From: Anaerolineae bacterium
GTDB lineage: Bacteria; Chloroflexota; Anaerolineae; Aggregatilineales; UBA3940
NCBI GenBank assembly: GCA_034435035.1
Contig: DAOTXW010000060.1
Location: 1,586 to 65,585, forward strand
DNA length: 64,000 bases
Reading direction: 5' to 3'
Shown here one piece after another: positions 6,949-39,983 of the stretch (the stretch's first letter is position 1; every line of letters starts with the position of its first letter). The translations under genes and the position numbers were made by a program. A model generated the notes under the pieces. That model saw only the letters and a program-made list of their open reading frames with translations. It searched no databases and was not told where the DNA came from.

Positions 6949-8730
6949 ATGTCCGATCGTGTAGAAACTGTTTCGCAGGGAGCGGGGCCGCGCGGGCTGC
7001 TGATTGCGCTGCGCCGTCTGGGGCGGCGCCTGTTTAGCATCCGCTACCGCTATGAGGATGTGCTCGACCGGCAGCGGGCTTCGGCGCTGGGCGTTATGTG
7101 CCTGCTGTTTGGCCTGATGGGCATGCTGGGCACACTGGCGCTGATCCTTTTCTTCCCGGAGGTTGCGCCCCGCCGCATGGCGATCCCGAATGTCGTCATG
7201 GGCCTTCTCTACCTGCTGCTGGTGCAGCAGGTGCAGACGGGCCGCCTGAGGCGGGCCAGCTTCGGCTTCATCGCGCTGGCTTTAGCCGTCCCCACCATCC
7301 TGAACCTGGCTTTCCAGTTCATCCCCTCGCAGGCGGCCTTCCTGAGTCTGTCGATCCCGGTGGTGGCTGCTTCCCTGCTGCTGGGGCCGCTGTGGTCCTT
7401 TGCGGCTGCCGGCCTGGCGATGCTCAGCGTGGCGGGCATCAGCCTGATGGAGTATCAGCGGCTGGCCGCGGCGCTGGGCGCGGATGCCCTGGCCGGCGAG
7501 GCGGCCCGGCTGCGCCTGGTCGCGCTGATCGTCGCCTTCCTGATGAGCATGCTTGCGCTGTTCGCCTGGCTGCTGACCACCAGCCTGACGCGCTGGGCGG
7601 AAAGCGCTCAGCGTCGCGCCCGCCAGCTGGAAGCCGCCGCCGTCATTAACGAGACGGCAGCGGTGACTGTTAACTTAAGCACGCTGCTGAATGTCGTGGT
7701 GGAGCGTATCCGCGACGCGTTCGGCTTCTACCACGCGCAGGTGTTCCTGATCGACCCGGAGGGACGTCTGGCCCGCCTGCAGGCCAGCACGGGCCGCGCC
7801 GGCCTGGCGCTGCTGGCGCGCGGCCACGCGCTGCGTGTCGGCTCGCAGTCGATGGTCGGGCAGTGTGCCTTCCTGGGCGAACCGATCGTGGTCAATGACA
7901 CCAGCCTCAGTTCCGTCTGGCGGCCCAACGAACTCCTGCCCGACACCCGCGCCGAGCTGTCGCTGCCGCTGCGGGTGGGCGACAATGTGATCGGGGTGCT
8001 GGATGTGCAGTCCACCACGCCCGGCGTCTTTGAGCCGGACGACGTGCGCTCGCTCAGCATCATGGCCCAGCAGCTCGCCACGACGATTGAGAAGACGCGT
8101 CTGCTGGACGCGCTGCAGGCGCGCGCTGAGGAGAACCAGCGCCTGTACGAAGAGTCGCAGTCCAGCCTGAGGCAGATCGAGGACCTGAACCGCCGCCTGA
8201 CCCGCGAAGGCTGGAGTGACTACCTGGCCGCGCGGCGGGCCGGCGGCACGCTGGGCTACACGCTGGCTCAGGGCGCGATCGAGGCGGACTCGAGCTGGAC
8301 GGCGCCGATGCGGCAGGCTTACCAGGGCGAACACAGCGTGATCGTCAGGCAGGATCAGAATGCGCATATCGCGGCGGTTCCCCTGCGCGTCCGTGGTGAG
8401 GTGATCGGCGTGCTGGAGATGGAGCGCGGGGGCAACCGCCCGTGGACCGATGAAGACCTGGAGATCGCCGAGACGCTGGTTGACCGCCTGTCGGTCGCCA
8501 TCGAGAACGCACGCCTGTTTGAGCAGGCGACGCAGGCCACCGAACGCGAGCATGTCATCAACCAGATCGCGCAGGATGTCCAGTCGGCGCAGACGGTGGA
8601 CGACATCCTCCAGTCCGCGCTGGCAGACCTGCGGTCGGTGCTGGGCGCGTCGCGCGGCATTGTGCAGATCAGCCCCCGGGCCGAGACCCGGTCGCGTACC
8701 GGTCACACCGGGCCGCTGGGGCGGTCGTAA
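6949..8730 (+). CDS. Polytopic membrane GAF sensor protein with no recognisable output domain (array paralog)
   Basis: Only a 6-nt gap from the upstream stop. Multi-TM N-terminus. Array-type GAF (FGFYHAQVFLIDPEGRLARLQASTGRAGLALLARGHALRVGSQSMVGQ..IGVLDVQS). LNRRLTREGW linker. Second GAF-like half (VPLRVRGEVIGVLEME..AIENARLFEQ). Confidence 0.85.
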   Translation: MSDRVETVSQGAGPRGLLIALRRLGRRLFSIRYRYEDVLDRQRASALGVMCLLFGLMGMLGTLALILFFPEVAPRRMAIPNVVMGLLYLLLVQQVQTGRLRRASFGFIALALAVPTILNLAFQFIPSQAAFLSLSIPVVAASLLLGPLWSFAAAGLAMLSVAGISLMEYQRLAAALGADALAGEAARLRLVALIVAFLMSMLALFAWLLTTSLTRWAESAQRRARQLEAAAVINETAAVTVNLSTLLNVVVERIRDAFGFYHAQVFLIDPEGRLARLQASTGRAGLALLARGHALRVGSQSMVGQCAFLGEPIVVNDTSLSSVWRPNELLPDTRAELSLPLRVGDNVIGVLDVQSTTPGVFEPDDVRSLSIMAQQLATTIEKTRLLDALQARAEENQRLYEESQSSLRQIEDLNRRLTREGWSDYLAARRAGGTLGYTLAQGAIEADSSWTAPMRQAYQGEHSVIVRQDQNAHIAAVPLRVRGEVIGVLEMERGGNRPWTDEDLEIAETLVDRLSVAIENARLFEQATQATEREHVINQIAQDVQSAQTVDDILQSALADLRSVLGASRGIVQISPRAETRSRTGHTGPLGRS

Positions 8731-8742
8731 AGGAGGGCGAGG

Positions 8743-10956
8743 GTGCAGCGCCTCTTCAGTCGTTTAGCCTGGAATGAGCTTTCTATTCGCGCCAAGATCG
8801 GCGTGGTGGTGGTGCTGCTGGTGGCGGTGATCATCGTCTTCACGCTGATTGCCATCAGCTCGGTCACTGCGCTGGGCAGCCAGGTGCGGGCGGGCGTCAA
8901 CACCGCGGTCGAGGTCCGATCCGCCTCGCAGGAAGTGCTGGTCTCCATTGAGACGCTGCAGCGGATTCAGGGGCGGGCTGTGGATGACCTGCGCAACCCC
9001 GCGTTCAACCCTGAAACCGTGCCGCTGCGCGATGAATACCAGCGGGAGCTGGCACGCCTGAACGATGACCTGCTGCCGCGCCTGCGCCTGTTGATGCTGG
9101 AGGTCGCCACCGAGGAGCAGGCGGAGGCGCTGGCGGTGGATTTCGGCAACCTGGCGACGGCACTGGCCGAAAGCGAAGCCGCGTTCGAACGCACCTATCA
9201 GATCATCACCCTGCTGGCGGCGCCGGAGACGGGCGAACTGGCCCTGCTGACGGCCAGCGGGGATGACCTGGAAGCGGGCATTGCCAGTCTTTCCTCGCCG
9301 GGCTTTTCCGAGCAAATGACGCTGATCCGCAGCCTGGAAGGCAGCTTCGTGCGGACAGGTTCCACGGAGGACCTGCTGGCGCTGCGTCAGGCCATCGAGG
9401 CATTCCGCACCGACTATGAGACGCGCGTCGGGCGGCCCTTCCAGCTCAGCCAGACCCTGCAGGATATTGATGCCTATGAACAGCAGGTCGATGCTGTGGC
9501 GAATCTCCTGCCCCAGGTTGACCTGTCAAACAGTGCCGCCCTGACCAGCCTGGAACGGACTCGCAGCACAGCCCTGCGGATTGCCGCCATCGCTGCCCAG
9601 CAGGCGGATGATCAGGTCTTCAACATCGAGGCCATCACGACAACGGCCGCCCGCCCGCTGGCGCTGTCGGCGCTCGGCCAGATCCTGTTGATCGGCCTGC
9701 TGATGGGCCTGTTTGCCCGCAGCCTGGTGCGCAGCCTGCAGAATCTGCTGGAGACGTCTCGCCGCTTCGAGCAGGGCAACTTCCGTGCCCGCGCCCGGGT
9801 GGAAGGGGGCGATGAGTTCAGCCAGCTGGGCCGCAGCTTCAATTCGATGGCCTCGCAGCTTGATATGCTGGTGGGCGGCCTGGAGGCCCGCGTCGCGGAG
9901 CGTACTCGCGACCTGAGCATCACGGCGGAGATCGGACGCGCCGTGCTGGCGGCCCGCGATCCTCAGGTGCTGATGCAGGAAGTGGTCGAGCTGATTCGCC
10001 AGCGTTTTGACTTCTATCATGCCCAGGTGTTCCTGGTCGATGAAGAAGGCCGCTACGCCCGCCTCGCGGCCAGCACCGGCGCGGTCGGGCGCGAGCTGCT
10101 GGCCCGCCGCCACGCGCTGGGGGTGGGATCGCAGTCGGTCATCGGGCAGGTCACGGCGACCGGTGAGCCAGTGATTGCGCTGGATACAGACACCAGCGCG
10201 GTGCACCGCCGCAACGAACTGCTGCCCGACACGCGCTCGGAGATGGCGCTGCCCATGCGCATCGGCGATCAGGTCATCGGCGCCCTGGATGTGCAGAGTG
10301 TGGCGCCCAACGCCTTCGACCAGGATACGGTCGCCGTGTTCCAGATCATGGCCGACCAGCTGGCGATCGCGCTGGACAATGCGCGGCTGGCCGACCGGCT
10401 GCGCCAGGCGGTGGCCGATCTGGAGAATGTCGAGCGGCGCGTGACGGCGGAAATGTGGCGGGCCTATCAGCAGGCACGCCAGCCCGCCGGCGTACTGGGA
10501 TACGAGATGCAGGGCGAGGTGCTGCTGCCAAGCACCGGCGAGGCGCCGCCTGAGGCCCTGCAGGAAGCGATCCGCACCGGGCAGTCGGTCGTTCGCGGCA
10601 ACGGTGAGGGGGAATATCAGGTAGCGCTTCCGATCCGGGTGCGCGGCGAGGTGATCGGGGCCTTCGGCTTCGGCGGAGAGACGCTCCGCAGCCTCACGGG
10701 CGACGATGTGGCTCTGCTGGAAGCGGTGATCGACCGGGTGGGCCTGGCTCTGGAGAACATGCGCCTGGTTGAGCAGACCGCCCGCCGCGCGGAATATGAG
10801 CAGATCGTCAATGAGATCACGGCCAAGATCGTGGGTTCGACGGATGTCAATTTCATCCTGCAAACCACGGTGAAGGAGCTGGGGCGTGCCCTGCGCGCTC
10901 CGCAGACCAGCCTCCAGCTCCGCAGTGAGAATAGGGTGGAAGGCGGCCATGAGTAG
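8743..10956 (+). CDS. Membrane sensor with TM, helical extracytoplasmic domain, TM, HAMP and GAF; no output domain (array paralog)
   Basis: GTG start with AGGAGG 7 nt upstream. HAMP-like segment (RSLVRSLQNLLETSRRFEQGNFRARARVEGGDEFSQLGRSFNSMASQL). Array-type GAF (FDFYHAQVFLVDEEGRYARLAASTGAVGRELLARRHALGVGSQSVIGQ..IGALDVQS..MADQLAIALDNARL). Second GAF-like half (LPIRVRGEVIGAFGF..). Confidence 0.85.
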   Translation: MQRLFSRLAWNELSIRAKIGVVVVLLVAVIIVFTLIAISSVTALGSQVRAGVNTAVEVRSASQEVLVSIETLQRIQGRAVDDLRNPAFNPETVPLRDEYQRELARLNDDLLPRLRLLMLEVATEEQAEALAVDFGNLATALAESEAAFERTYQIITLLAAPETGELALLTASGDDLEAGIASLSSPGFSEQMTLIRSLEGSFVRTGSTEDLLALRQAIEAFRTDYETRVGRPFQLSQTLQDIDAYEQQVDAVANLLPQVDLSNSAALTSLERTRSTALRIAAIAAQQADDQVFNIEAITTTAARPLALSALGQILLIGLLMGLFARSLVRSLQNLLETSRRFEQGNFRARARVEGGDEFSQLGRSFNSMASQLDMLVGGLEARVAERTRDLSITAEIGRAVLAARDPQVLMQEVVELIRQRFDFYHAQVFLVDEEGRYARLAASTGAVGRELLARRHALGVGSQSVIGQVTATGEPVIALDTDTSAVHRRNELLPDTRSEMALPMRIGDQVIGALDVQSVAPNAFDQDTVAVFQIMADQLAIALDNARLADRLRQAVADLENVERRVTAEMWRAYQQARQPAGVLGYEMQGEVLLPSTGEAPPEALQEAIRTGQSVVRGNGEGEYQVALPIRVRGEVIGAFGFGGETLRSLTGDDVALLEAVIDRVGLALENMRLVEQTARRAEYEQIVNEITAKIVGSTDVNFILQTTVKELGRALRAPQTSLQLRSENRVEGGHE

Positions 10957-13900
10957 CAGACCCTCCCCGGTATCTCGTTGGTTTGCCCGGCAGCGCCGGC
11001 TGGGCGCGCTGCTGCTGGCGTTGTTCGTGCTGCTGGCGCTGGCGCCGACCGGCGCGCTGACGATCGTGTCAACGGTGCGCGACAACCAGAGTGCACGCGA
11101 ATCGGCCACGGCCCTGCTGAGCGCCTATGCCGATACCGGCGTTCGCGCCCTTGACCAGTGGGTCGTGGATACCCTTAACATCATCCGCTTCCAGCTTCAG
11201 GACAGAGAGGCGCGCCAGCTGATGATCGCGCTGGTAGCAGGCCCGCCGGAAGAATCGGGCCGGACGGCCCTGACCGCGGAGGCGGAGTTCACGCAGGATG
11301 TGCGCGATCTGGTCAACAGCACGGATTTCGATTACCTCGTCCTGCTGGACAGCCGCGGAATCGTGCGCGGCAGCAGCGATGCGCAGCTCCTCGGGCGCGA
11401 TCTCAGCAGCGAGCTGTGGTTCCGGTCGGCCCTCCAGAACCCGGAGGAAGCCCGGCTGTTCGGCCCGCTGCGCGATGGTGTCAGCGGCCAGCAGGGCCTG
11501 TTCTTCGCCGGGGCGCTGTCTTCCCCGGAGGGTGGCGCTCCGCTGGGCGTGCTGGGCGGCCGCGTGGGCTTCAGCCCGCTGGCCACGCTGCTGAGTCAGA
11601 ACCTGCCCGGCGGCGTCCTGGGCGCCACCGGCGATTACTTCCTGGTGCGCGAGGGGCAGCAGTACGTGACGCCGCCCCGCTTCGCGCCCGGCGCCGCGCT
11701 GGCGCTGGATGAGATCCTCCCCACGGCGCTGGCGGGCGTCGATGGCTCCGGCGAGTGGATCGACTACCGCGGTGAGCCGGTGCTGGGTGTTTATCGCTCG
11801 ATCGAACCACTGGGCATGACGCTGATCGTCAAGCAGGACGTGGCCGACGCTCTGGTGGCGACCCGGCAGCGCACGCAGTCTAACCTGGCGCTGGGGGGCG
11901 GCATCGGCCTGATCGCGCTGGTGCTGGGCTTCCTGGCGGCGCGCAGCGTCACCCGCCCGCTCAGCCAGCTGAGCCAGACGGCTGTCGATATCTCGCGCGG
12001 GGACCTGTCCGTGCAGATCCCGGAGTTCGCCATTACCGAACTGGGGCAGGTGGCGCACTCGCTCAATACGATGACCCGCCAGATCAGGAGCCTGCTGGAA
12101 TCCCAGGAAGCGACGATCCGCGCCCGCACGCGGCAGCTCCAGATCACGGCCCAGATCGGCCGCGCCATCGCGGCGGAGACCGATCTCGATCGCCTGCTGA
12201 ATGTAACCATCAACAGCATTTGCGAGCAGCTGGGTTACTATCACGCGCAGGTCTTTCTGATCGATGACCTGCGACAGTACGCTGTCCTGCGGGCCAGTAT
12301 GGGTGAAGCGGGCGCCGCGATGATCGAGCGCAGCCACAAGCTGCCGGTCGGTTCGCGCTCGGTGATCGGCCAGGCGACCTCAATCGGCGAGCCTGTGCTG
12401 GCCAGTGACACCATGCGGGCTGAATACTGGATGCCGAACCCGCTGCTGCCCGATACGCGCTCCGAGCTGGCTGTCCCGATCCGCATCGGCGATCAGGTCA
12501 TCGGGGCGCTGGATGTGCAGTCCGACCGCGTCGACGCCTTCGATGAAGAGACGATCGCAGCCCTCCAGACCGTGGCCGACCAGCTCGCCGTCGCGCTGCG
12601 CAACGCCCAGCTTTTTGACGAAAAGGAGGGCCTGATCTCCGCCTCCGTGCAGCTGACGCAGATGCTCACCCGGGATAACTGGGACTCCTACCTGCGCGGA
12701 CAGCGCTCGCCGCAGGGGGCGCTGGGCTACCGCTACGATCTCAGCAGCGTGCAGCCCGTGACCGGCGAGGGCGAGGGCGACAACGGCTACGGCGTGCGGG
12801 TTCCGATCGCGCTGCGCGGCCAGGTGATCGGCGAGCTGGCCGCCGAGCTGCCGGATGGCGAGGTCCTGGGCGATCAGGAGCGGCAGCTGGTGGGCGAGGT
12901 GCTGGATCGCGTCGCGCTGGCTCTGGAAAACGCCCGCCTGTTTGAGCAGACGCAGCTTTCGCTGCAGGAATCAAACCGCCTCTATCAGGCCAGCCGCCGC
13001 ATCACCGACGCGGACACGGCGGAGATGCTGGCTCAGGAGCTGGTCGAGCTGGCGGCCGTCGAGAACGCGGAGCGTGTGGCGCTCTTCCTGCTGGATGATC
13101 CCGATATGCCCCCCGGCGATCGGTGGGTGACGATGGCGAGCCTGTGGAGCCGTTCTCCTGATGATCCGGTGGCGCGGTTGGCCGTCCGGCTGCGGACCGG
13201 CCAGCCGCCCCTGCTGGGGATCGAGGGCACGCCGCCGGAAGGCCGGCTGGTGCATGACGTGGAAACCGATCCTGAACTGTCGGCGGCGGCCCGCGATAAC
13301 CTCCGCCAGTTGAATGTGCGCTCGGCGGCCACGTTCCCGCTGATTACGGGCCGCCGCACCGTGGGCTGGCTGGTCGTGCACAGCCTCAGCCAGCCGGGAG
13401 CCTTCGGGGAAAGTGTCGTGCGTTTCTACCGCACCCTGGCCGATCAGGCCGCCACGGCCCTGGAAGGGCTGCGTCTCCTGGAGCAGGCCCAGAGCCGCGC
13501 CCGCCGTCTGCAGGCCACTAACGAGGTGTCCCGCGCGGCTTCCTCCATCCTGAACCCCGACATCCTGCTGCCGCTGGTGGTCAGCCAGATCAGCGAGGCC
13601 TTCGGCTACTATCATGTGCAGATCTTCCTGCTGGATGAGATGGGCGAATGGGCGGTCCTGCGGGCCTCCACCGGCGAGGTGGGCAAGCAGCTGCTGGCCC
13701 GCGACCACCGCCTGCAGGTCGGCTCCCAGTCGGTGATCGGGCAGGTCACCAGCACCGGCCAGCCCTTCATCGTCCGCGATACGGATACTGACCCGGTACA
13801 CCGCCGCAACGAACTGCTGCCGCAGACGCGCTCAGAGATGGCCATCCCGCTCAAGACGGGCGACCGGGTGGTGGGGGTGCTGGATGTGCAGAGCACCCAG

Positions 13901-31907: not shown

Positions 31908-32516
31908 CTAGCCGGTCAGCCGTGGGAAGAACCGCCCGGTGCGCTGCATGTAGGCGCGGTAGGCATCGCCGAAGCGCTCCACCAGCATCGCTTCCTCCCG
32001 GCGGGTGCGGATGATCAGCGGGACGGCCAGCACGGCCATCAGCGCGGCGAAGAACCAGGTGGCAGCCACCAGGCTCAGCGCCGCGAAGAAGATGATCCCA
32101 GAGGTGTACAGGGGGTGACGAATCCAGCGGTACGGGCCGGTGGTCACCAGGCTGTGCTCGCCTTTGGTCACCACGGTCCGGGTGACGTTGCCGCCCAGAT
32201 GCCGCTGCGCCCACAGGATCAGGAAGGGCACGACGGCGGCTGCCCCGACTCCGCACCAGCGGAGCCAGGCCGGCAGCGGCAGCGCGGCCCGGGCCAGGAT
32301 CGGCGGGTAGATGGCGTAGGCGATCCCGCCCAGCCACAGCAGCGGGCCCAGCACGCGCAGCAGCAGGTAGATCAGGGGACCTTCCTGCGCAAAGGCGGCG
32401 CGGGGGGAGACGCGTCCCCCGATGGGCTCAGCCCGGCGCCGGTAGGAGCCGGCGATGAACAGGCTGGAGAAGAACAGCACGGCAAACGCGATCTGGAAAG
32501 GGGTATTCTCGGCCAT
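31908..32516 (-). CDS. Isoprenylcysteine carboxyl methyltransferase (ICMT)/phospholipid methyltransferase-family membrane protein
   Basis: ..LVTTGPYRWIRHPLYTSGIIFF.. and ..RTRREEAMLVERFGDAYRAYMQRTGRF... Confidence 0.8.
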   Translation of the reverse strand: MAENTPFQIAFAVLFFSSLFIAGSYRRRAEPIGGRVSPRAAFAQEGPLIYLLLRVLGPLLWLGGIAYAIYPPILARAALPLPAWLRWCGVGAAAVVPFLILWAQRHLGGNVTRTVVTKGEHSLVTTGPYRWIRHPLYTSGIIFFAALSLVAATWFFAALMAVLAVPLIIRTRREEAMLVERFGDAYRAYMQRTGRFFPRLTG

Positions 32517-32539
32517 GAAATCGGTGCCCTCAGTAAATA

Positions 32540-32584
32540 TTTAGGAATACCTAAAATAATATTTTATTTATCGCTAAATGTCAA
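32540..32584 (-). promoter_or_regulatory. Consensus sigma-70 promoter (TTGACA-17 nt-TATTAT on the minus strand) with a palindromic operator TTTAGG-nnnn-CCTAAA at the predicted transcription start
   Basis: On the plus strand, TGTCAA lies at 32579-32584 and ATAATA at 32556-32561. The palindrome lies at 32540-32555. All sit in a ~50-bp AT-rich island directly upstream of the ICMT-family gene. Confidence 0.6.
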
Positions 32585-32653
32585 GGCCCTGACTGGCGGA
32601 AAAAGCAGTGCCGCCCCCGGAGGAGGGGCGGCAGGTCGGCGCATGGCCGGGAC

Positions 32654-33163
32654 CTACTGAGTCTGGGTTTCGCAGTTGGAAAAGGTATCGGTGCCGGCCT
32701 GCCCCAGGCAGGTATCCGTCTGGTTGCCGCCGTTCAGCGTATCGTCGCCGGCGCCGCCGTACAGGGTATCGCTGTTGTTGCCGCCCAGCAGCCAGTCCGC
32801 TCCGGCGTCGCCCAGGATCACATCGCTGCCGTTGCCGCCGAGGATGATGTCGTTGCCGTTGCCGCCGACGATGCAGTCATCGCCATTCTGTGCGTTGATC
32901 AGGTCGCCGCCCGGGGTGCCCAGGATCAGATCGTTACCGTTGGTGGGCGCGCCCACCCCGATCTGCACCACACTGGTCAGGTTCAGGGAAGCGCACTCGG
33001 TCGGCTTCAGGTCATTGGCCGTGATGGCGCGGCTGGAATCCTCCGCGCCGCTTTCATCGACGGTGTTGGCCGCGGCCAGCGCCGAGATGACGCCGGCCAG
33101 GATCAGGGCCAGCAGGGCGATCAGCGCGAGGCGAACGGCTATTGTGATCCGCTGGATGTCCAT
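32654..33163 (-). CDS. Secreted calcium-binding-repeat (GGxGxD, RTX-like) protein with a SipW-operon-type signal peptide
   Basis: The ATG at 33163 is preceded by GGGAGG. N-terminal TM/signal ..LILAGVISALAAANTVDESGAE... C-terminal repeats GGNGNDIILGGNGSDVILGDAGADWLLGGNNSDTLYGGAGDDTLNGGN. Confidence 0.8.
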   Translation of the reverse strand: MDIQRITIAVRLALIALLALILAGVISALAAANTVDESGAEDSSRAITANDLKPTECASLNLTSVVQIGVGAPTNGNDLILGTPGGDLINAQNGDDCIVGGNGNDIILGGNGSDVILGDAGADWLLGGNNSDTLYGGAGDDTLNGGNQTDTCLGQAGTDTFSNCETQTQ

Positions 33164-33185
33164 TTGACCTCCCGCCGTGTGACAC

Positions 33186-35600
33186 CTACGGCGCCGCGTC
33201 GATGGAGGCGGCGCAGCGGAAGCCAAGCCCCGCGATGCGCAGATCGGGTTCGAAGCCGGCGCGGGCCGTCGCGCGGATGGCCGTCAGCGGCACGCCCCAG
33301 GCTCCACCCCGCAGCACCCGCAGCGTCCCGTCCTCCGGGCCGGCCGGATCTTCCGCCGGGGAATCGGCGTAGTAGTCGGCGTCGTACCAGTCGGCCACCC
33401 ACTCGGCCACGTTGCCCAGCATGTCCAGGGCGCCCACGGGGCTGGCCCCCGCCGGGTAGCTGCCGACCGGCGCGGTCTGCGTCCAGCCGTCATCAAAGGA
33501 CCGGTCGGCCTGATCCAGCGGGCAGCCGGCGTCGCAGAAATTGAGAAGGGCCGGATCCTGCTGATCCCCCCACGGGTAGGTGGTCACCTGCCCGGTGCGG
33601 GGATTCCAGCGGGCGGCCATCTCCCATTCCGCCTCAGTGGGCAGACGGGCGCCCCGCCAGCGGCAGTAGGCGTCGGCGTCCTGCCAGCTGACGAAGATGA
33701 CAGGGTAGTCGGCAAACACATCCGTCCCGTAGTAGGGTTCGCCCAGGTAATCTGTGGTCGGGGAGGGCTGACGGCAGGCGCCGGCGGCCACGCAGACGGC
33801 GTACTGCGCGTTGGTCACCTCAGTGCGATCGATGGCGTAAGCGGACAGGGTGACGGAGTGAATCGGGCCTTCCGGTGCGCCGCGCTCCGAGCCCATCTCA
33901 AACGTCCCGCCGGGCACGGGCACCATGTCCGCGTCCCGCTGGACGATCGGACTGGCCGCCGCGGTAAGCTCCGCCGGGGCGGTCGCCGCCGTCGGTGGGG
34001 TGGCTGAGTCCCCGGTGGGCGTGATCGGGACGGCGGTGGGGATCGTCGTCGAAGCCCGCGTCGGGGCCGGGGTGTTGGCGGCGTCCGGCGTCCCCGTTGG
34101 AAGCGGGGCGAGAAGCTCGCTCAGCGGCCGCTGGCCGGTCAGCCAGACGACGGCCACCGCCGCCGCGATCAGGGCGGCGGCGCCGCCCAGCACCAGCAGG
34201 ATGACCAGCAGGGTGCGCGGCGCCCTGGCGGGCCTGCTCGCCGGAACCGCCGGGAGCGGCGCCCCGCCTCCAGCCTGAGTCGCATCCGGGTCGTAGGCAG
34301 GCGCAGGAAGGGCCTGCGCGGATGACAGCCAGCCCGCGACTCCGGCCGTCACCATGATGAGCGCAACGATCAGCCCGCCTGCCGACAGCCAGCGGGCCGT
34401 GCCGACGGGCACCTGCTGCCCCAGGATGGTCAGCGTGGCGGGCACCGTGACCTCGCGGGCCAGGAAGCGATCAGCGGCGGGCTGCACAGGCGAGCCCTCT
34501 TCGCCGGGATCGGTGACCAGCGCCATCTGCTGATCGTCCAGCAGGAAATCGATCTGCGGCTCGAAGTCATCGGACAGCAGATCGCCGCCCAGCCAGCCCT
34601 CGACATGCACCGGCGCGATGATGGACAGGGTGTACTGCCCGCGCTGGATGCCGGTGCGCGTTTCGAGCTGGGCGATCAGGCCCGTCACCTCATCCAGGTC
34701 CAGGACGCCGCTCGCAGTGATCGCGCTGCCTGCGAAGGTGCGGTCGGGCTGCAGCTCCAGCGTGCGCGTCCAGCCGCTGTTGGTGTCGGTGAGGCGGGCC
34801 AGCAGCCCGTAGGTGGTGCTCAGCCCGGCGGGCGCCTCGGAGGTAAACCGGTAGTCGAACTGGAACGTCACTTCGTCGGTGAGGGCGATGAAGACCGGGT
34901 CGCCGGTTGTCACCGCATCGGTGTCGTAGATGCCGTCCGGCGCGGGCGCTGAGTAGGTAAAGACGCCGCTGTGACGGTAGGGCACCTGCTCGGTCGCCCG
35001 CGTGCGCAGCGGCTGACGGAAGGCCGCCAGCCCCAGCACGATGCAGGCTGCCGCCAGCATCAGCCCCAGCAGGAGGATATCCGCTGCTGCCTGGCGCCGG
35101 GATGCCGGCTCAGGATTCGAAGTGGATCGGGTCTGTCTGTCCATCCGGATTGTGCTCACAATCAGCAGCCCCAGAATCGCGGCCAGGGCTGCCACTCCCA
35201 CCGGCGACTGAAGCCGCCGCACATAACCGCCCACCCCCGGCAGACGCAGCCACAGCTTGCCGATGATCTCGTCCCGGGTGGGCTGGTGCGAGTCCGTCCA
35301 GTGGTTGTTGTCCCCCTTGAGGAGGAACCGCTCCCCCTGCTGATCGATGATGCGGTGGATCACCGGCCCGTAGCGCGGGTCGCGGTAGGTCACCACCTCG
35401 CCGATCTGGTAGCTGTCGCCGGCCCGCAGGACAGCCAGATCGCCGCGGGACAGCACGGGCTCCATGCTGCTGCCGGTGACGATCACATACGCGGCCTGCC
35501 CGCCGAACCCGACCGGCGCAAAAGTGATCCAGGCGGCGGCGGTGGCCACCAGCAGCACGATGGGCCAGAACAGCCTTCTGCGAGCAGGGTCGAATCCCAT
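33186..35600 (-). CDS. Fusion protein: archaeal/SipW-type signal peptidase I, TM segments, an extracytoplasmic domain of unknown function, Pro/Thr-rich linkers, and a C-terminal FGE/SUMF1-type domain
   Basis: Peptidase motifs ..VIVTGSSMEPVLSRGDL.. and ..LLKGDNNHWTDSH... At least four TM helices. The FGE-sulfatase-type C-terminus has ..VPGGTFEMGS.., ..VTNAQYAVCV.., ..RLPTEAEWEMAAR.., ..LDMLGNVAEWVADWY.., ..RVLRGGAWG... Confidence 0.85.
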   Translation of the reverse strand: MGFDPARRRLFWPIVLLVATAAAWITFAPVGFGGQAAYVIVTGSSMEPVLSRGDLAVLRAGDSYQIGEVVTYRDPRYGPVIHRIIDQQGERFLLKGDNNHWTDSHQPTRDEIIGKLWLRLPGVGGYVRRLQSPVGVAALAAILGLLIVSTIRMDRQTRSTSNPEPASRRQAAADILLLGLMLAAACIVLGLAAFRQPLRTRATEQVPYRHSGVFTYSAPAPDGIYDTDAVTTGDPVFIALTDEVTFQFDYRFTSEAPAGLSTTYGLLARLTDTNSGWTRTLELQPDRTFAGSAITASGVLDLDEVTGLIAQLETRTGIQRGQYTLSIIAPVHVEGWLGGDLLSDDFEPQIDFLLDDQQMALVTDPGEEGSPVQPAADRFLAREVTVPATLTILGQQVPVGTARWLSAGGLIVALIMVTAGVAGWLSSAQALPAPAYDPDATQAGGGAPLPAVPASRPARAPRTLLVILLVLGGAAALIAAAVAVVWLTGQRPLSELLAPLPTGTPDAANTPAPTRASTTIPTAVPITPTGDSATPPTAATAPAELTAAASPIVQRDADMVPVPGGTFEMGSERGAPEGPIHSVTLSAYAIDRTEVTNAQYAVCVAAGACRQPSPTTDYLGEPYYGTDVFADYPVIFVSWQDADAYCRWRGARLPTEAEWEMAARWNPRTGQVTTYPWGDQQDPALLNFCDAGCPLDQADRSFDDGWTQTAPVGSYPAGASPVGALDMLGNVAEWVADWYDADYYADSPAEDPAGPEDGTLRVLRGGAWGVPLTAIRATARAGFEPDLRIAGLGFRCAASIDAAP

Positions 35601-35651
35601 CGGCTTGGGTCCAGGGCTTCTCGATCCGGGCGTCTCTGCTTATCTTACAGC

Positions 35652-35688
35652 AGGGGCACAGCCAACCGCCAGCGGTCGCTGTGCCCCT
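35652..35688 (-). terminator. Intercistronic GC-rich stem-loop (possible partial terminator or RNA stabiliser) between the small secreted-protein gene and the peptidase gene
   Basis: AGGGGCACAG (35652-35661) pairs with CTGTGCCCCT (35679-35688), a 10-bp perfect stem with a 17-nt loop. There is no U-tract. Confidence 0.35.
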
Positions 35689-35735
35689 CTCAGAGTGTCG
35701 GTGGCGCGGCCCGGCGCCGCGTCAGGCGGCTGCAG

Positions 35736-36125
35736 CTACTGGGCCGCCACGACTCTCAGATTGTCAGCCGAGAGAACCGTCACGCCGGTCACGGCGCAGT
35801 CCCAGGTCGTGCCGGCCACCGGGCTGCAGGCGATCCAGGTGCCCGTGCCGTTGAGCTCGATGTAGACGTTGTTGGGGGCCTGGGCGCCCGCGGTCGGCGC
35901 GATGTCGAAGGTCACCAGGTCGATGTCGGTGGGGTCGCCGTCGGTGTAGAAATCATAGGTGATGTTGCTGACGGTGTACCCGCTGATGGTGCCCTGACCA
36001 TCGCCGGCCCCGCTCTCGGGGACGACATTGGCGGCGGCATAGGCATAGGCGACGGCGGCCAGGATCAATACGAAAATGAGGACGGCCAGCGTGCGGAAGT
36101 TGAACAGACGGCGAGTGATAGGCAT
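35736..36125 (-). CDS. Small secreted protein (129 aa) with a SipW-operon-type signal peptide; candidate fibre or pilin-like subunit
   Basis: The ATG at 36125 is preceded by GAGGAG. N-terminus MPITRRLFNFRTLAVLIFVLILAAVAYAYAAANVVPESGAGDG. The mature part is Thr/Gly/Val-rich and predicted beta-rich. Confidence 0.75.
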   Translation of the reverse strand: MPITRRLFNFRTLAVLIFVLILAAVAYAYAAANVVPESGAGDGQGTISGYTVSNITYDFYTDGDPTDIDLVTFDIAPTAGAQAPNNVYIELNGTGTWIACSPVAGTTWDCAVTGVTVLSADNLRVVAAQ

Positions 36126-36642
36126 TAAATAGCTCCTCGGTAGCTTAAAAATGATGCGCGGCCAATGATACAGGGCGGCGCCCGGCCTCACAGGTAGGGA
36201 ATCCCTGTAGATCGGTGTTTCATCCGCGCCTGCGCCTGGCGATGAAAGACCAGATGTTCTACTGACCGCCGCTGTCTTCGAGCCCCGGTGATTTTCTTAA
36301 CATTCCGGGCGCCGGCCCGGATGCAGCCCCGGTCGGCGGGTCGGCCCCTGCCTCTGGCGGTCTGCGTCCGGCGCCGGCGGGAGTCGATCAGGCAAACTCT
36401 ATGCAAACAATTTTACAAACCGGCCACCTTAAAGAATGGAACTTTTTAAGGCGCGGGCATTGTTTTGACGCCCCGGACTCTGCTAAGATGGGGTTGCCAG
36501 CCGCACTCTGGACGCTTCTGTGCGCTGACACCCGTTTCACCGGCAACCCGATCCATAATCCGGACAGCCCGCATGCCCTGTGGGGGCTGCTGAGGCGCCG
36601 CTTGATTCTGAGAGACAGCGAACGGGCATCGTGACCACTGCT

Positions 36643-38067
36643 ATGAGCGATCCGCCGCCGAGCGCGCAGACCATCTGGGATACCGCCTACGGACAGCTCC
36701 AGCTCCAGATGCCGCGGGAGACGTTCGATACCTGGCTGCGCGGCACCCGCCTGATCGCGCATGAGGACGGCACTTATATCCTGGGCGTGCCGAACATCTA
36801 CGCCCGCGAGTGGCTGGAGCACCGGCTCAAGAGCATCATCCTGCGCACGCTCGGCCAGATCGCCCGGCGCAGCGTCGAAGTGCGCTTCATCCTGTGGGCG
36901 GAGCAGGCGGCGCAGCCCCTGCACGATGCCGGGCCGCTGCTGGCCGACCTGGAGCCGCCGCAGGAGGCCGCGCCGGCCTTTGAGCCGGCCCACGCCGGTG
37001 AAACCGGCCTCAACCCGCGCTACACCTTCGAGGTCTACGCCCCCGGCCCCTCCAACCGGCTGGCGCTGGCGGCCGCCCGGGCGGTCGTCGAGGCGCCGGG
37101 GACGCAGTTCAACCCTCTGCTGGTGCATGCCGATGTCGGGCTGGGCAAGACGCACCTGCTGCAGGCGATCGGGCATGCCTGCGCCGATGCCGGCCTGCGG
37201 GTGCGCTTCGTCCCCGCCGAGACCTTCACCAATGACCTGGTGGCCGCCATCCGGGGCCGTCGCATGGAGGCCTTCCGCGACAAGTACCGTGCGCTGGATG
37301 TCCTGCTGATCGATGACCTGCAGTTCATCGCAGGCAAGGACTCGACTCAGGAGGAGTTCTACCATACCTTCAACGCGCTGGCAGACGGGGAAGGCCAGAT
37401 CGTGGCGGCGGCCAGCGGCCCCCCCGGACAGCTGCCCCGGCTGGACGTGCGCCTGGTCTCCCGCTTCGAGGGCGGGCTGGGGGTGGAGATCGAGCCGCCT
37501 GATTTCGAGACGCGGCTGGCGATCCTGGGCATCAAGGCCCGGCTGCGCGGCTTCGACGGCCGCATCCCGCTGGAAGTGCTGGAGCTGATCGCGGAGGAAA
37601 CGCCGGGCAGCGTGCGCGATCTGGAGGGTGCGCTCAACCGCCTCATCGCGGCGGCGATGCTCACCGGCGAAGTGCCCGGGCTGAGGCTGGCCGAGCGGGC
37701 CATCGAGCAGATCGGGCGGGAGCGCCCGCCGGAAGGGCACCTCGCGCTCGCCGATCTCATCGCCGCTGCTGCCGAGTATTACGGCGTTAGCCCGGACGCG
37801 CTGGCCGGGCGCGATCGCTCCCGCGAGGTCTCGGCGGCGCGCCAGGTGGTGATGTACCTGGCCCGCGAAGTCGCCGGCGCCTCCCTGGCCGAGATCGGCG
37901 AGGCGCTGGGCGGGCGCAACCACAGCACGGTGCTGTACGCCATCGAGCGCGTGGCCGACCTGGTGGCCGCCGATTCCGAGGTGCGCCGTCAGGTGCAGGC
38001 GCTGCTGCGCAGCCTGAGCGCCGGGCAGCGCCTCCCCGTGCCGCAGCCGCGCGCCCGCCGCCGCTGA
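36643..38067 (+). CDS. dnaA: Chromosomal replication initiator protein DnaA
   Basis: Domain I (..WDTAYGQLQLQMPRETFDTWL..), Walker A (..GLGKTHLLQAIG..), Walker B (..LLIDDLQF..), and domain IV (..SREVSAARQVVMYLARE..LAEIGEALGGRNHSTVLYA..). An alternative GTG start lies at 36631. Confidence 0.93.
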   Translation: MSDPPPSAQTIWDTAYGQLQLQMPRETFDTWLRGTRLIAHEDGTYILGVPNIYAREWLEHRLKSIILRTLGQIARRSVEVRFILWAEQAAQPLHDAGPLLADLEPPQEAAPAFEPAHAGETGLNPRYTFEVYAPGPSNRLALAAARAVVEAPGTQFNPLLVHADVGLGKTHLLQAIGHACADAGLRVRFVPAETFTNDLVAAIRGRRMEAFRDKYRALDVLLIDDLQFIAGKDSTQEEFYHTFNALADGEGQIVAAASGPPGQLPRLDVRLVSRFEGGLGVEIEPPDFETRLAILGIKARLRGFDGRIPLEVLELIAEETPGSVRDLEGALNRLIAAAMLTGEVPGLRLAERAIEQIGRERPPEGHLALADLIAAAAEYYGVSPDALAGRDRSREVSAARQVVMYLAREVAGASLAEIGEALGGRNHSTVLYAIERVADLVAADSEVRRQVQALLRSLSAGQRLPVPQPRARRR

Positions 38068-38918: not shown

Positions 38919-39983
38919 TTACAGGGGCCGCCAGGGCAGCGGCTCGTTGCGGTCGCGGCCCGGCACGTAGTGGAGCCGCTCCTGCATCGGGCGGGTGAGC
39001 GCACGGTTGATGGCGCACAGCGGGATGTTCTGCGGGCAGGTGGCCTGGCACATGCCGCAGGCCGAGCAGCTCATCAGCCGCTGGCTGTGCTGAATCAGCG
39101 CGGCGATGAAGCTCGTCTGCCCCTGGCCCAGCGCCGCCGAAAGCTCCTCGCTGCACATCGGGCATGCCTGCAGGCACTCCCCGCACAGGTTACACTGGCT
39201 CAGGTAGCCGAGGATCGCGCCCAGGCTGGCATCCCGCAGCCCCAGGGATTCCAGTTTGCGGTCGGCGGCCTCCTGCCGCTGCTCGCTGAGCCGCCAGACG
39301 GCTACCTCGCGCTCCACCGTCTCGCGCTCGGTCGCCAGCCGGTCGGTGAGGGCGGCCAGCCGGAAACGGGCATCGTCGCGTTCGCTGGCGATCACCAGCA
39401 GCTTCTGGCGGGCGTCCAGCCCGATCAGGCCGACGAGGATATCCGCCGCCAGGTAATCGGCGCTGGGGCGGTCGCACAGCTGGCAGGCGGCGCGGTAGCG
39501 GTAGGGCGCGATCTGGCCGCGCTCCGCGAAGCGCAGCGATTCGTGCATCAGCCACAGCGGGTCTTCAGGGTGCCCGGCGCTGACTTCGTGATAGAAATCC
39601 TCGTCATAGGTGCCGAGACAGTCCACGCCGATCAGCACCACGCGGCCCAGGTCGATCTGGCCGCGCTTGGCCAGCTCGATGACGGCGCGGACCTCGCAGG
39701 GCCGCAGCAGAGCCGCAAAGGTCAGGCCCGGTTCAGCGCCGAGGGCCTGGCGCAGCGCCAGCGCGGCGTTCTCGGTCATCAGGGGCACCAGCGGGTTGAT
39801 CCGCTGCGCGCCTTCCCGGTCCCCCAGCGACTGGGCGCGGGCCACAGGCAGCCCATCCTGCAGCAGCTCCACCGGCGCGAACAGCCGGTCGGCGATGCCT
39901 TCGGCCAGCATCTTCCCGGCGAAGCGGCGCAGCGCAGCCACCGTATCATTGTTCTGTACGTCCACTACCCGGCTGATCCACAT
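38919..39983 (-). CDS. FrhB/FdhB-like flavin/Fe-S protein with two C-terminal [4Fe-4S] motifs
   Basis: ..LLRPCEVRAVIEL.. resembles the FrhB PCQ region. CNLCGECLQACP and CSACGMCQATCP are present. The ATG at 39983 is preceded by GGGGAGGA, 14 nt after the upstream stop. Confidence 0.65.
   Translation of the reverse strand: MWISRVVDVQNNDTVAALRRFAGKMLAEGIADRLFAPVELLQDGLPVARAQSLGDREGAQRINPLVPLMTENAALALRQALGAEPGLTFAALLRPCEVRAVIELAKRGQIDLGRVVLIGVDCLGTYDEDFYHEVSAGHPEDPLWLMHESLRFAERGQIAPYRYRAACQLCDRPSADYLAADILVGLIGLDARQKLLVIASERDDARFRLAALTDRLATERETVEREVAVWRLSEQRQEAADRKLESLGLRDASLGAILGYLSQCNLCGECLQACPMCSEELSAALGQGQTSFIAALIQHSQRLMSCSACGMCQATCPQNIPLCAINRALTRPMQERLHYVPGRDRNEPLPWRPL

Follow-up and report, generated by a model that had tools for sequence, protein, structure and literature searches.

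The subject of this study is a three-gene cassette on the minus strand of a 64,000-nucleotide stretch of DNA (positions 1,586 to 65,585 of contig DAOTXW010000060.1, assembly GCA_034435035.1) from an Anaerolineae bacterium of the Chloroflexota, a stretch that is referred to below, at its full length, as the window. Its genes encode, in order, a small secreted protein of 129 amino acids (aa; 36125..35736), a polytopic protein of 804 aa (35600..33186) that joins a signal peptidase to a domain with the fold of formylglycine-generating enzymes (FGEs), and a second small secreted protein of 169 aa (33163..32654); the first and the last are termed class A and class B here. A preliminary description, made from the sequence alone, had proposed a compact three-gene unit with secreted neighbours, and this agrees with the open reading frames (ORFs) called on the window, with the Sec-type signals of the two small proteins and with the intrinsic-terminator-like hairpin, followed by a T-run, that was located by terminator scan at the end of the unit (32633..32609, minus strand). 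Independent gene calls on contig CAYVJV010000011.1 of the metagenome-assembled genome (MAG) GCA_964451875.1 gave the same three products. A second hairpin, GC-rich and without a U-tract, lies inside the operon between the class A gene and the peptidase gene (35652..35688, minus strand); its computed fold is the stem-loop originally noted there, and the terminator scan did not call it as a canonical terminator. A scan of the window against Rfam gave no matches.

The 804-aa protein is built, from its N-terminus, of a transmembrane (TM) helix (TM1), an S26B peptidase domain, TM2 and TM3, a DUF5305-like beta-sandwich, TM4, a short loop, TM5, a Pro/Thr-rich linker of the kind previously described, and the FGE-fold domain. 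All motifs on which its first assignment had relied are present in the translation, namely GSSMEP (residues 43-48), KGDNNHWTD (residues 95-103), RLPTEAEWEMAAR, GNVAEWVADWY and RGGAWG. In scans with profile hidden Markov models (HMMs), residues 12-149 (35154..35567, minus strand) matched the ER/archaeal-type signal peptidase I model TIGR02228 (sigpep_I_arch) at 75.2 bits, above its cutoff of 51.85, and the bacterial-type model TIGR02227 reached just 26 bits against a cutoff of 47. Hydropathy and an AlphaFold2 model place TM1 at residues 14-32, after an N-terminus containing RRR, and the peptidase beta domain at residues 36-120. When this domain was aligned with human SEC11A (7p2p), the SMEP, HR and KGDNN boxes fell into register, giving S45, H82 and D97, the last within the GDNN motif, as the catalytic residues; together with R83 and D103 these are invariant or nearly so in alignments of 32-34 homologues. 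The peptidase part of the model was matched by Foldseek to Streptococcus pyogenes SipA (4n31) and to the S24 domains of LexA and lambda repressor. Because the SEC11A alignment, the conserved residues and the Foldseek matches concur, we assign the N-terminus, on sequence grounds, to the Ser-His (not Ser-Lys) S26B signal peptidases with the active residues intact. The earlier identification of a SipW/archaeal-type peptidase thus holds, with TIGR02228 above its cutoff and the Ser-His-Asp set conserved.

Between TM3 and TM4 lies a 211-aa loop (residues 194-404 by hydropathy), which corresponds to the extracytoplasmic region of about 200 aa in the preliminary description and which we identify as a DUF5305-like beta-sandwich (residues ~195-404; 34389..35018, minus strand). 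The match of the 804-aa protein itself to DUF5305 (PF17231) is weak (13.9 bits against a cutoff of 29), and in full-length homologues at 34-46% identity, for which a PF17231 annotation is precomputed, the score is 26-51 bits. The AlphaFold2 model of residues 1-460 (pLDDT 84) contains TM1, the peptidase beta domain, TM2 and TM3, a large beta-sandwich at residues 199-398 (pLDDT > 90) and TM4. In AbpX loci, DUF5305 is described as a putative accessory of signal peptidase I (SPase I), with a beta-sandwich outside the cell, a TM helix on either side of it and then an alpha/beta domain in the cytoplasm (bioRxiv 10.64898/2026.01.04.697558); of this arrangement the window protein has the sandwich between TM3 and TM4, and a 40-aa loop and TM5 stand in place of the alpha/beta domain. 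Foldseek searches with the DUF5305 part returned generic beta-sandwiches alone (3but, TMEM106B/8b7d, ApaG), and no other signal-peptidase-complex subunit was found among the top 50 matches of the combined peptidase and DUF5305 model; the analogy to the eukaryotic complex drawn in the AbpX preprint is therefore not confirmed.

The source of the window is a metagenome-assembled genome, and the fusion might accordingly be an assembly or frameshift artefact, or the peptidase a general housekeeping enzyme with no link to its neighbours. However, the identical 804-aa ORF is present in a second, independent assembly (Logan SRR10095374), full-length proteins with the peptidase, beta-sandwich, extra TM helix and FGE domain occur at 37-46% identity in four other metagenomic lineages (P0002/L003, to which L009 from a Chloroflexota MAG is near-identical; P0147/L089; P0179/L090; P0245), and class A and class B genes accompany the peptidase gene in about 75 of 80 loci. 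This explanation is effectively refuted and we give it virtually no weight; the fusion is real. In the three relatives whose flanks are available (L009, L089 and L090), the fusion gene is flanked by a gene of ~125-130 aa on one side and a gene of ~140 aa on the other, the downstream product containing HemolysinCabind in L089, matching class B in L009 and having no Pfam match in L090. In a literature search, fusions of a signal peptidase to an FGE, EAL or HD-GYP domain turned up in no paper, in line with the preliminary description, to which no described case of the first kind was known.

To place the fusion within its family, residues 1-550 of the 804-aa protein were used as the query of an exhaustive representative search (E <= 1e-30), which defined a peptidase-DUF5305 family of 983 representative clusters; word-indexed searches with the whole protein were swamped by FGE words (21 and 29 matches) and were not used for this census. 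Some 30 of the top 150 representatives exceed 700 aa in length. Among the 34 long members scanned there were 19 with EAL, seven with HD-GYP-type HD_5 and three with FGE domains, in addition to the window protein (P0001), so that FGE is the rarest of three alternative C-terminal modules, with EAL and HD-GYP commoner; the majority of family members have no signalling domain. When the N-terminal cores were placed in a rough neighbour-joining tree, all five FGE members grouped inside a single 11-member subclade and the EAL and HD-GYP members were scattered. The idea that the operon is built around an FGE fusion is therefore not supported: the FGE domain is a rare, clade-restricted option, and peptidases with no extra domain, with EAL or with HD-GYP are commoner. 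The EAL variants keep EALxR, with DDFGTGYSS degenerate in most, and HD-GYP motifs are intact in several of the HD-GYP variants. A cytoplasmic EAL or HD-GYP domain is carried by about 26 of the 150 closest representatives, and cassette peptidases with EAL or HD-GYP (HD_5) domains are encoded at L006 5001-7481, L057 6403-8814, L063 6418-8805, L077 3480-5918, L019 4440-6644, L022 6312-8666, L039 3215-5440, L047 6469-8598 and L053 6440-8653. Fusion of a domain of the cyclic di-GMP (c-di-GMP) type to a signal peptidase appears to be undescribed.

The C-terminal modules differ in the membrane topology that precedes them. Where no extra domain is present, relatives have four TM helices and end in a cytoplasmic tail of 90-165 aa that is rich in K and R; in the window protein, the cytoplasmic alpha/beta tail of these relatives is replaced by a 40-aa loop and an additional fifth helix (TM5, residues 464-482; 34155..34211, minus strand), bringing to five by hydropathy scan the TM helices that had earlier been put at four or more. 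Five helices were likewise predicted in P0002 and P0147, and four helices with a cytoplasmic tail in P0005, P0010, P0013, P0014, P0016 and P0018; TM5 is absent in relatives with no extra domain, with EAL or with HD-GYP. The presence of the fifth TM helix in all FGE variants therefore puts their FGE-fold domain outside the cell, and retention of four TM helices in the EAL and HD-GYP variants therefore puts their domain inside. The predicted side of the membrane is the one that each type of C-terminal domain requires.

The C-terminal domain of the window protein (residues 557-797; 33210..33932, minus strand) matches PF03781 (FGE-sulfatase) at 208 bits, and its closest solved relatives are true FGEs from T. 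curvata, S. coelicolor and human (E 1e-39 to 1e-32). The fold assigned to it at the outset, FGE/SUMF1-type, is thus real. The same cannot be said of the accompanying suggestion that the domain could modify a protein as an FGE, in which formylglycine or a related oxidation would be put on the co-secreted proteins during their processing. Such a role would draw on the PF03781 score, on the E value of about 1e-39 to true FGE structures and on its predicted location, on the side of the membrane where the substrates also lie. However, the LCHxSYC segment of true FGEs, which holds both copper-binding catalytic cysteines (human C336/C341), is replaced in the window protein by GVP and a three-residue gap, so that the active-site segment reads RGGAWGVP, gap, LTAIR and contains no Cys; the pair is lost in every fused relative as well (P0002/L009, P0147, P0179, P0245). 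The target motif C/SxPxR occurs in none of 94 class A proteins and in none of 53 class B proteins, and among the window ORFs of at least 250 aa, in a check of which a Pfam sulfatase scan formed no part, it gave one chance-looking match (SAPSR, in a 527-aa ORF at 9526-11109). Furthermore, most cassettes have no FGE domain, and SUMF2/pFGE, which also lacks the FGE active-site cysteines, is inactive. Because the Cys pair is lost in all fused FGE domains and CxPxR is missing from the neighbours, formylglycine modification is very unlikely: we conclude with high confidence, judging from the active-site segment, that the domain is not a formylglycine generator, and an active FGE acting on the cassette proteins seems to us highly improbable. 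A match to the FGE-sulfatase HMM does not imply formylglycine chemistry, and the 804-aa protein, with its active-site cysteines gone, is a case for caution.

The domain could also be a different enzyme, performing PvdO- or EgtB-like oxidation or modifying an envelope glycan with residues other than the FGE cysteines. The superfamily does hold non-FGE enzymes, with EgtB, OvoA, SenA and PvdO among the superfamily matches of the domain, and conservation of the domain across the five fused lineages is good and extends to a C-x5-C loop and an N-x-C-D-x-x-C insertion. However, EgtB, OvoA and SenA chemistry requires an N-terminal DinB-type iron domain that is absent from the 804-aa protein, the corresponding models match through their C-terminal halves alone and far below their cutoffs, and no cofactor site was identifiable, so that we consider an enzyme of this kind quite unlikely. 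The domain instead resembles those members of the fold that are not catalysts (SUMF2, PorK/GldK, TvpA and kinase ectodomains), the first three of which are among its PDB matches (1y4j, 9mzu, 2y3c), and we have moderate confidence that it is a lectin-like binding or sensing module. A second, unfused pairing of an FGE-like domain with the cassette was seen in locus L085, where a gene for a Ser/Thr kinase with a C-terminal FGE-like domain, also without the FGE Cys pair, directly follows the class B gene (8559-10400, plus strand) of a cassette that is otherwise FGE-less.

The two small proteins are alike at their N-termini. Class A and class B preproteins each have a basic N-terminus, a hydrophobic helix, an A/G-x-A site and a near-invariant mature N-terminus. 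Class A, a family of 122 clusters, carries a Sec signal with an A-x-A site, followed in the window protein by the mature N-terminus AANVVPESGAGDG and a six-strand beta-sandwich of ~80 aa; the consensus of the mature N-terminus is A-[AS]-N-[TV]-V-P-x-[ST]-x-A-G-D-G-x-G-x-[IV]-S-G-Y. Mature class A has about 98 aa, is acidic (D+E 8% against K+R 2.6%) and contains two conserved cysteines. An AlphaFold2 model from a 59-sequence alignment (pLDDT 83.7) contains a signal helix of the cleavable type at residues 10-32, a region of low confidence at residues 33-49 and strands at residues 50-128, and suggests that class A is a small disulfide-bridged beta-sandwich; residues 33-49 form a 17-residue N-terminal extension that is highly conserved despite the low model confidence and is taken to be disordered. 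Scans of 59 class A members gave no Pfam or NCBIfam family, and a class A profile compared with all PDB sequences gave nothing relevant at E <= 10. Class B has the same putative cleavage site, after which the mature N-terminus would be AANTVDES; the mature protein has about 122 aa, is acidic (D+E 15%) and, like class A, poor in K and R, and contains four conserved cysteines and a conserved NDLKPxEC segment that is followed mostly by RTX repeats. The calcium-binding GGxGxD repeats first read in the 169-aa protein were recovered by Pfam scan as three stretches matching PF00353 (HemolysinCabind, 66 bits). The first eight residues of the mature protein, A-x-N-[TV]-V-P-x-[ST], are all that the two classes have in common, and Asn3 is kept in 100% of the class A and 98% of the class B sequences. 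The A-G-D-G-x-G stretch of class A resembles half of an RTX calcium-binding repeat, which hints at a Ca2+-mediated contact between class A and class B.

Two other routes found no support. Type I secretion is not indicated for class B, which has an N-terminal Sec-type signal with an A-x-A site, and no transporter genes flank the cassette in the window or in related loci; processing of class A as a type IV pilin or archaellin was rejected, being at odds with an A-x-A site that follows the helix and with the lack of a prepilin-peptidase motif before it. One class A homologue (P0074) is named 'archaellin' in a JGI record, which looks like a mis-annotation by way of its N-terminal hydrophobic helix.

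How far the cassette extends was gauged by scanning GTDB species genomes for the pattern of the class A alignment, which gave 218 relatives; the best 80 of these 218 loci were then analysed for synteny by scripted ORF calling and phmmer. All but three of the 80 were labelled as Chloroflexota lineages, and they include Caldilineaceae, which hold the closest relatives (54-59% identity), Anaerolineales, Chloroflexia, Kouleothrix, Pelolinea submarina MO-CFX1, Thermoflexus and Dehalococcoidia. In about 75 of the 80 loci the order is class A (one to three copies), peptidase-DUF5305, class B, which answers the call for a synteny comparison in related genomes, and the order class A, peptidase, class B was also seen in the metagenomic contexts whose flanks were examined. 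The class B gene lies directly downstream of the peptidase gene in most of the 80 loci, usually overlapping it or within a few bases. A stable hairpin 3' of class A is likewise conserved (mean z -3.2 against shuffled controls, n=56 loci; z < -2 in 37 of the 56), so that the stem-loop after the first gene is a feature of homologous loci as well as of the window, and this fits class A being expressed above its enzyme, as a major subunit relative to the peptidase. Variant cassettes were also noted: in some Chloroflexia a stand-alone peptidase of ~160 aa is followed by a class-B-like RTX protein of 670-710 aa, and in two Actinomycetota MAGs a class A homologue lies beside a short peptidase without DUF5305 (L028 6554-9042, L076 6597-9096, L079 6372-7348 and L080 6340-7245).

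Taking as observed the domain identities, the status of the catalytic residues, the logic of the topology, the synteny, the common cleavage motif and the conserved hairpin, we infer that the neighbours are substrates of the peptidase, that they may polymerise and that the FGE-like domain would have a ligand. That class A and class B are dedicated substrates of the peptidase we hold with high confidence. Our working model, which we think probable, is that the dedicated peptidase trims the two small secreted proteins, that the products act outside the cell, probably in a Ca2+-dependent matrix, and that the FGE-fold domain is catalytically dead. In this model, the class A and class B preproteins would be exported by Sec, and the co-encoded S26B peptidase, with the DUF5305 beta-sandwich as an accessory subunit in cis, would cut both after the common A/G-x-A site, freeing the near-invariant mature N-terminus A-x-N-[TV]-V-P. 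The acidic, disulfide-bridged products would then, most plausibly, form a Ca2+-dependent surface polymer or matrix outside the cell, in which class A may be the highly expressed bulk component and the RTX-containing class B a minor, tip or nucleating component; by analogy with known fibre systems, our confidence in polymer formation by these proteins is moderate to low. The C-terminal module may tune or localise processing, through a c-di-GMP module inside the cell in many lineages and through a dead-FGE module outside it in the lineage of the window. In the small subclade of the latter, the tail gives way to TM5, the Pro/Thr linker and the extracytoplasmic FGE-fold domain, which might keep a substrate, a product or an envelope ligand close to the peptidase, or might gate its activity.

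The same components could serve regulated shedding, the main alternative and one akin to LapD/LapG control of an RTX adhesin, in which class A and class B would remain anchored at the cell surface by an uncleaved N-terminal helix until the peptidase frees them on cue. The C-terminal module would be the switch, and the signal would be c-di-GMP in the cytoplasm or, on the outer side, a ligand that the FGE-like domain binds. The EAL or HD-GYP domains on about 26 of the 150 closest representatives would suit such a switch, the degenerate DDFGTGYSS motif of most EAL variants suggests a receptor rather than an enzyme, and both the RTX repeats of class B and the want of support for a pilin fold in class A point the same way. 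We nevertheless regard shedding as rather unlikely: the A-x-A site, where a typical signal helix ends, has the appearance of an ordinary co-translocational cleavage site, a conserved hairpin and class A genes in one to three copies suit a structural subunit that is highly expressed, and the signalling domain is absent in most family members.

Several points weigh against the proposal that the peptidase trims subunits of an extracellular matrix. The class A model, when compared with the PDB by Foldseek, gave a best E of 0.1, and the matches included no TasA, AbpA, AbpX, TafE or solved pilin. The TasA/camelysin likeness once envisaged for the 129-aa protein thus finds no support from sequence, profile or Foldseek comparison, and no jelly-roll resemblance was detected; membership of the TasA fold is not supported, a very distant kinship being possible. 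The N-terminal extension of class A is Gly-rich, unlike a typical amphipathic donor strand, and the conserved mature N-terminus could equally be a recognition element of the peptidase on the P' side of the cleavage site. The tie between peptidase and substrates is, in addition, one of sequence and synteny, and a catalytic role of the FGE-fold domain that uses no cysteine would be compatible with its sequence. A bolder form of the proposal, in which class A and class B make up a new Ca2+-dependent polymer of non-TasA fold throughout the Chloroflexota and the peptidase, through its built-in regulatory modules, gates their export or processing, is offered only tentatively. Were it true, cleavage of the signal peptide would be a regulated step of matrix assembly.

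Downstream of the cassette on the same strand (31908-32584) is a gene for a 202-aa membrane methyltransferase of the PEMT/ICMT family, with its own near-consensus sigma-70-like promoter (TTGACA-17-TATTAT, 32584..32556) beyond the terminator of the cassette; the gene therefore forms a transcription unit of its own, and it is not conserved beside the cassette in other loci. On the other side, dnaA (36580..38067, plus strand) is divergent from the cassette across a spacer of ~450 bp. An origin of replication (oriC) was sought beside dnaA, and no DnaA-box cluster was found in the spacer or elsewhere in the window; the six one-mismatch DnaA-box matches in the window (2.6 expected) are scattered. 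ARAGORN called a 94-nt tRNA-Ala(CGC) at 39660-39753 (plus strand), inside the region of a Fer4 ferredoxin-type gene on the opposite strand; because Rfam finds no tRNA there, this call within GC-rich coding sequence is probably spurious.

For TasA-like biofilm fibres in Bacillus and archaea, a dedicated SipW/TafD-type peptidase with a DUF5305 partner is coming to be seen as the hallmark. The fused peptidase-DUF5305 anchors a highly conserved three-gene cassette across the Chloroflexota, in at least 218 species-level genomes, whose carriers are filamentous and dominant in many sludge, sediment and hot-spring communities. The presumed substrates of the cassette belong to no described family, and its peptidase has repeatedly gained signalling-type modules, whether EAL, HD-GYP or a dead FGE domain; control of a signal peptidase through c-di-GMP or through an extracellular sensor domain would be an unusual way to regulate secretion. 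Our literature search found no description of the Chloroflexota cassette, of its two substrate families or of its modular C-termini, including the FGE variant. The general kind, a dedicated SipW/TafD-type peptidase with DUF5305 beside small secreted subunits, is already known.

The closest parallels are the Tafi loci and DUF1102 clusters of archaea, which like the cassette have a dedicated S26B peptidase and DUF5305 beside small secreted subunits. In haloarchaeal Tafi, TafG (DUF5305) is encoded beside TafD, and deletion of TafD blocks processing of TafA (PMC11821415; PMC12337348). The cassette differs in having peptidase and DUF5305 on one polypeptide, to which the 804-aa protein adds an extracytoplasmic FGE-fold domain, in substrates (a beta-sandwich of about 100 aa and an RTX protein) that show no detectable likeness to TafA/E or DUF1102, in signals of the Sec rather than the Tat type, and in the lack of TafB, TafC or TafF counterparts. 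Bacterial signal peptidases containing DUF5305 have been listed in Tepidiforma and Actinoplanes (PMC11821415), and an SPase I-DUF5305 fusion of Anaerolinea thermophila (E8MZY1) has been cited for AbpX systems (bioRxiv 10.64898/2026.01.04.697558). Because both the Tafi paper and the AbpX preprint mention such fusions, the peptidase-DUF5305 core of the 804-aa protein is an architecture already known, if only bioinformatically.

AbpX/TasA-superfamily biomatrix loci resemble the cassette in their acidic secreted subunits with a conserved N-terminal extension, in the involvement of calcium, in a neighbouring dedicated SPase I and DUF5305 and, among bacteria, in a link to c-di-GMP enzymes. The N-terminal extension of AbpX is disordered in the monomer and has there been shown to be a donor strand (bioRxiv 10.64898/2026.01.04.697558). 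In contrast, class A is about half the size of AbpX, is without the aromatic-2/acidic-4 donor-strand signature and gives no profile or Foldseek match to any solved chain, those of the TasA superfamily among them; the AbpX-associated SPase I is described with 10 TM helices, whereas the 804-aa protein has five. The Bacillus subtilis tapA-sipW-tasA operon, like the cassette, combines an accessory or minor protein, a dedicated SipW-type peptidase and a major matrix subunit, and the SipW model NF046067 matches the 804-aa protein weakly (36 bits against a cutoff of 190). However, its gene order differs, SipW is about 190 aa long and has no DUF5305 or FGE domain, and TasA has a ~260-aa Peptidase_M73 fold, to which no cassette protein gave a match.

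The C-terminal domain finds its counterparts in SUMF2/pFGE, PorK/GldK, TvpA and the FGE-like domains linked to Ser/Thr kinases, which have the same fold and lack the active-site cysteines as the 804-aa protein does, but none of which has a signal peptidase joined to it. For the EAL and HD-GYP variants, a conceptual parallel may be seen in the LapD/LapG system of c-di-GMP-controlled proteolysis of the RTX adhesin LapA, in which LapG is a DUF920 Cys protease and receptor and protease are separate proteins. By analogy, a cytoplasmic domain of c-di-GMP type would, in both cases, be coupled across the membrane to a protease acting on an RTX surface protein; in the cassette, however, the protease is of the S26B type and is fused to the c-di-GMP-type domain in the EAL and HD-GYP variants.

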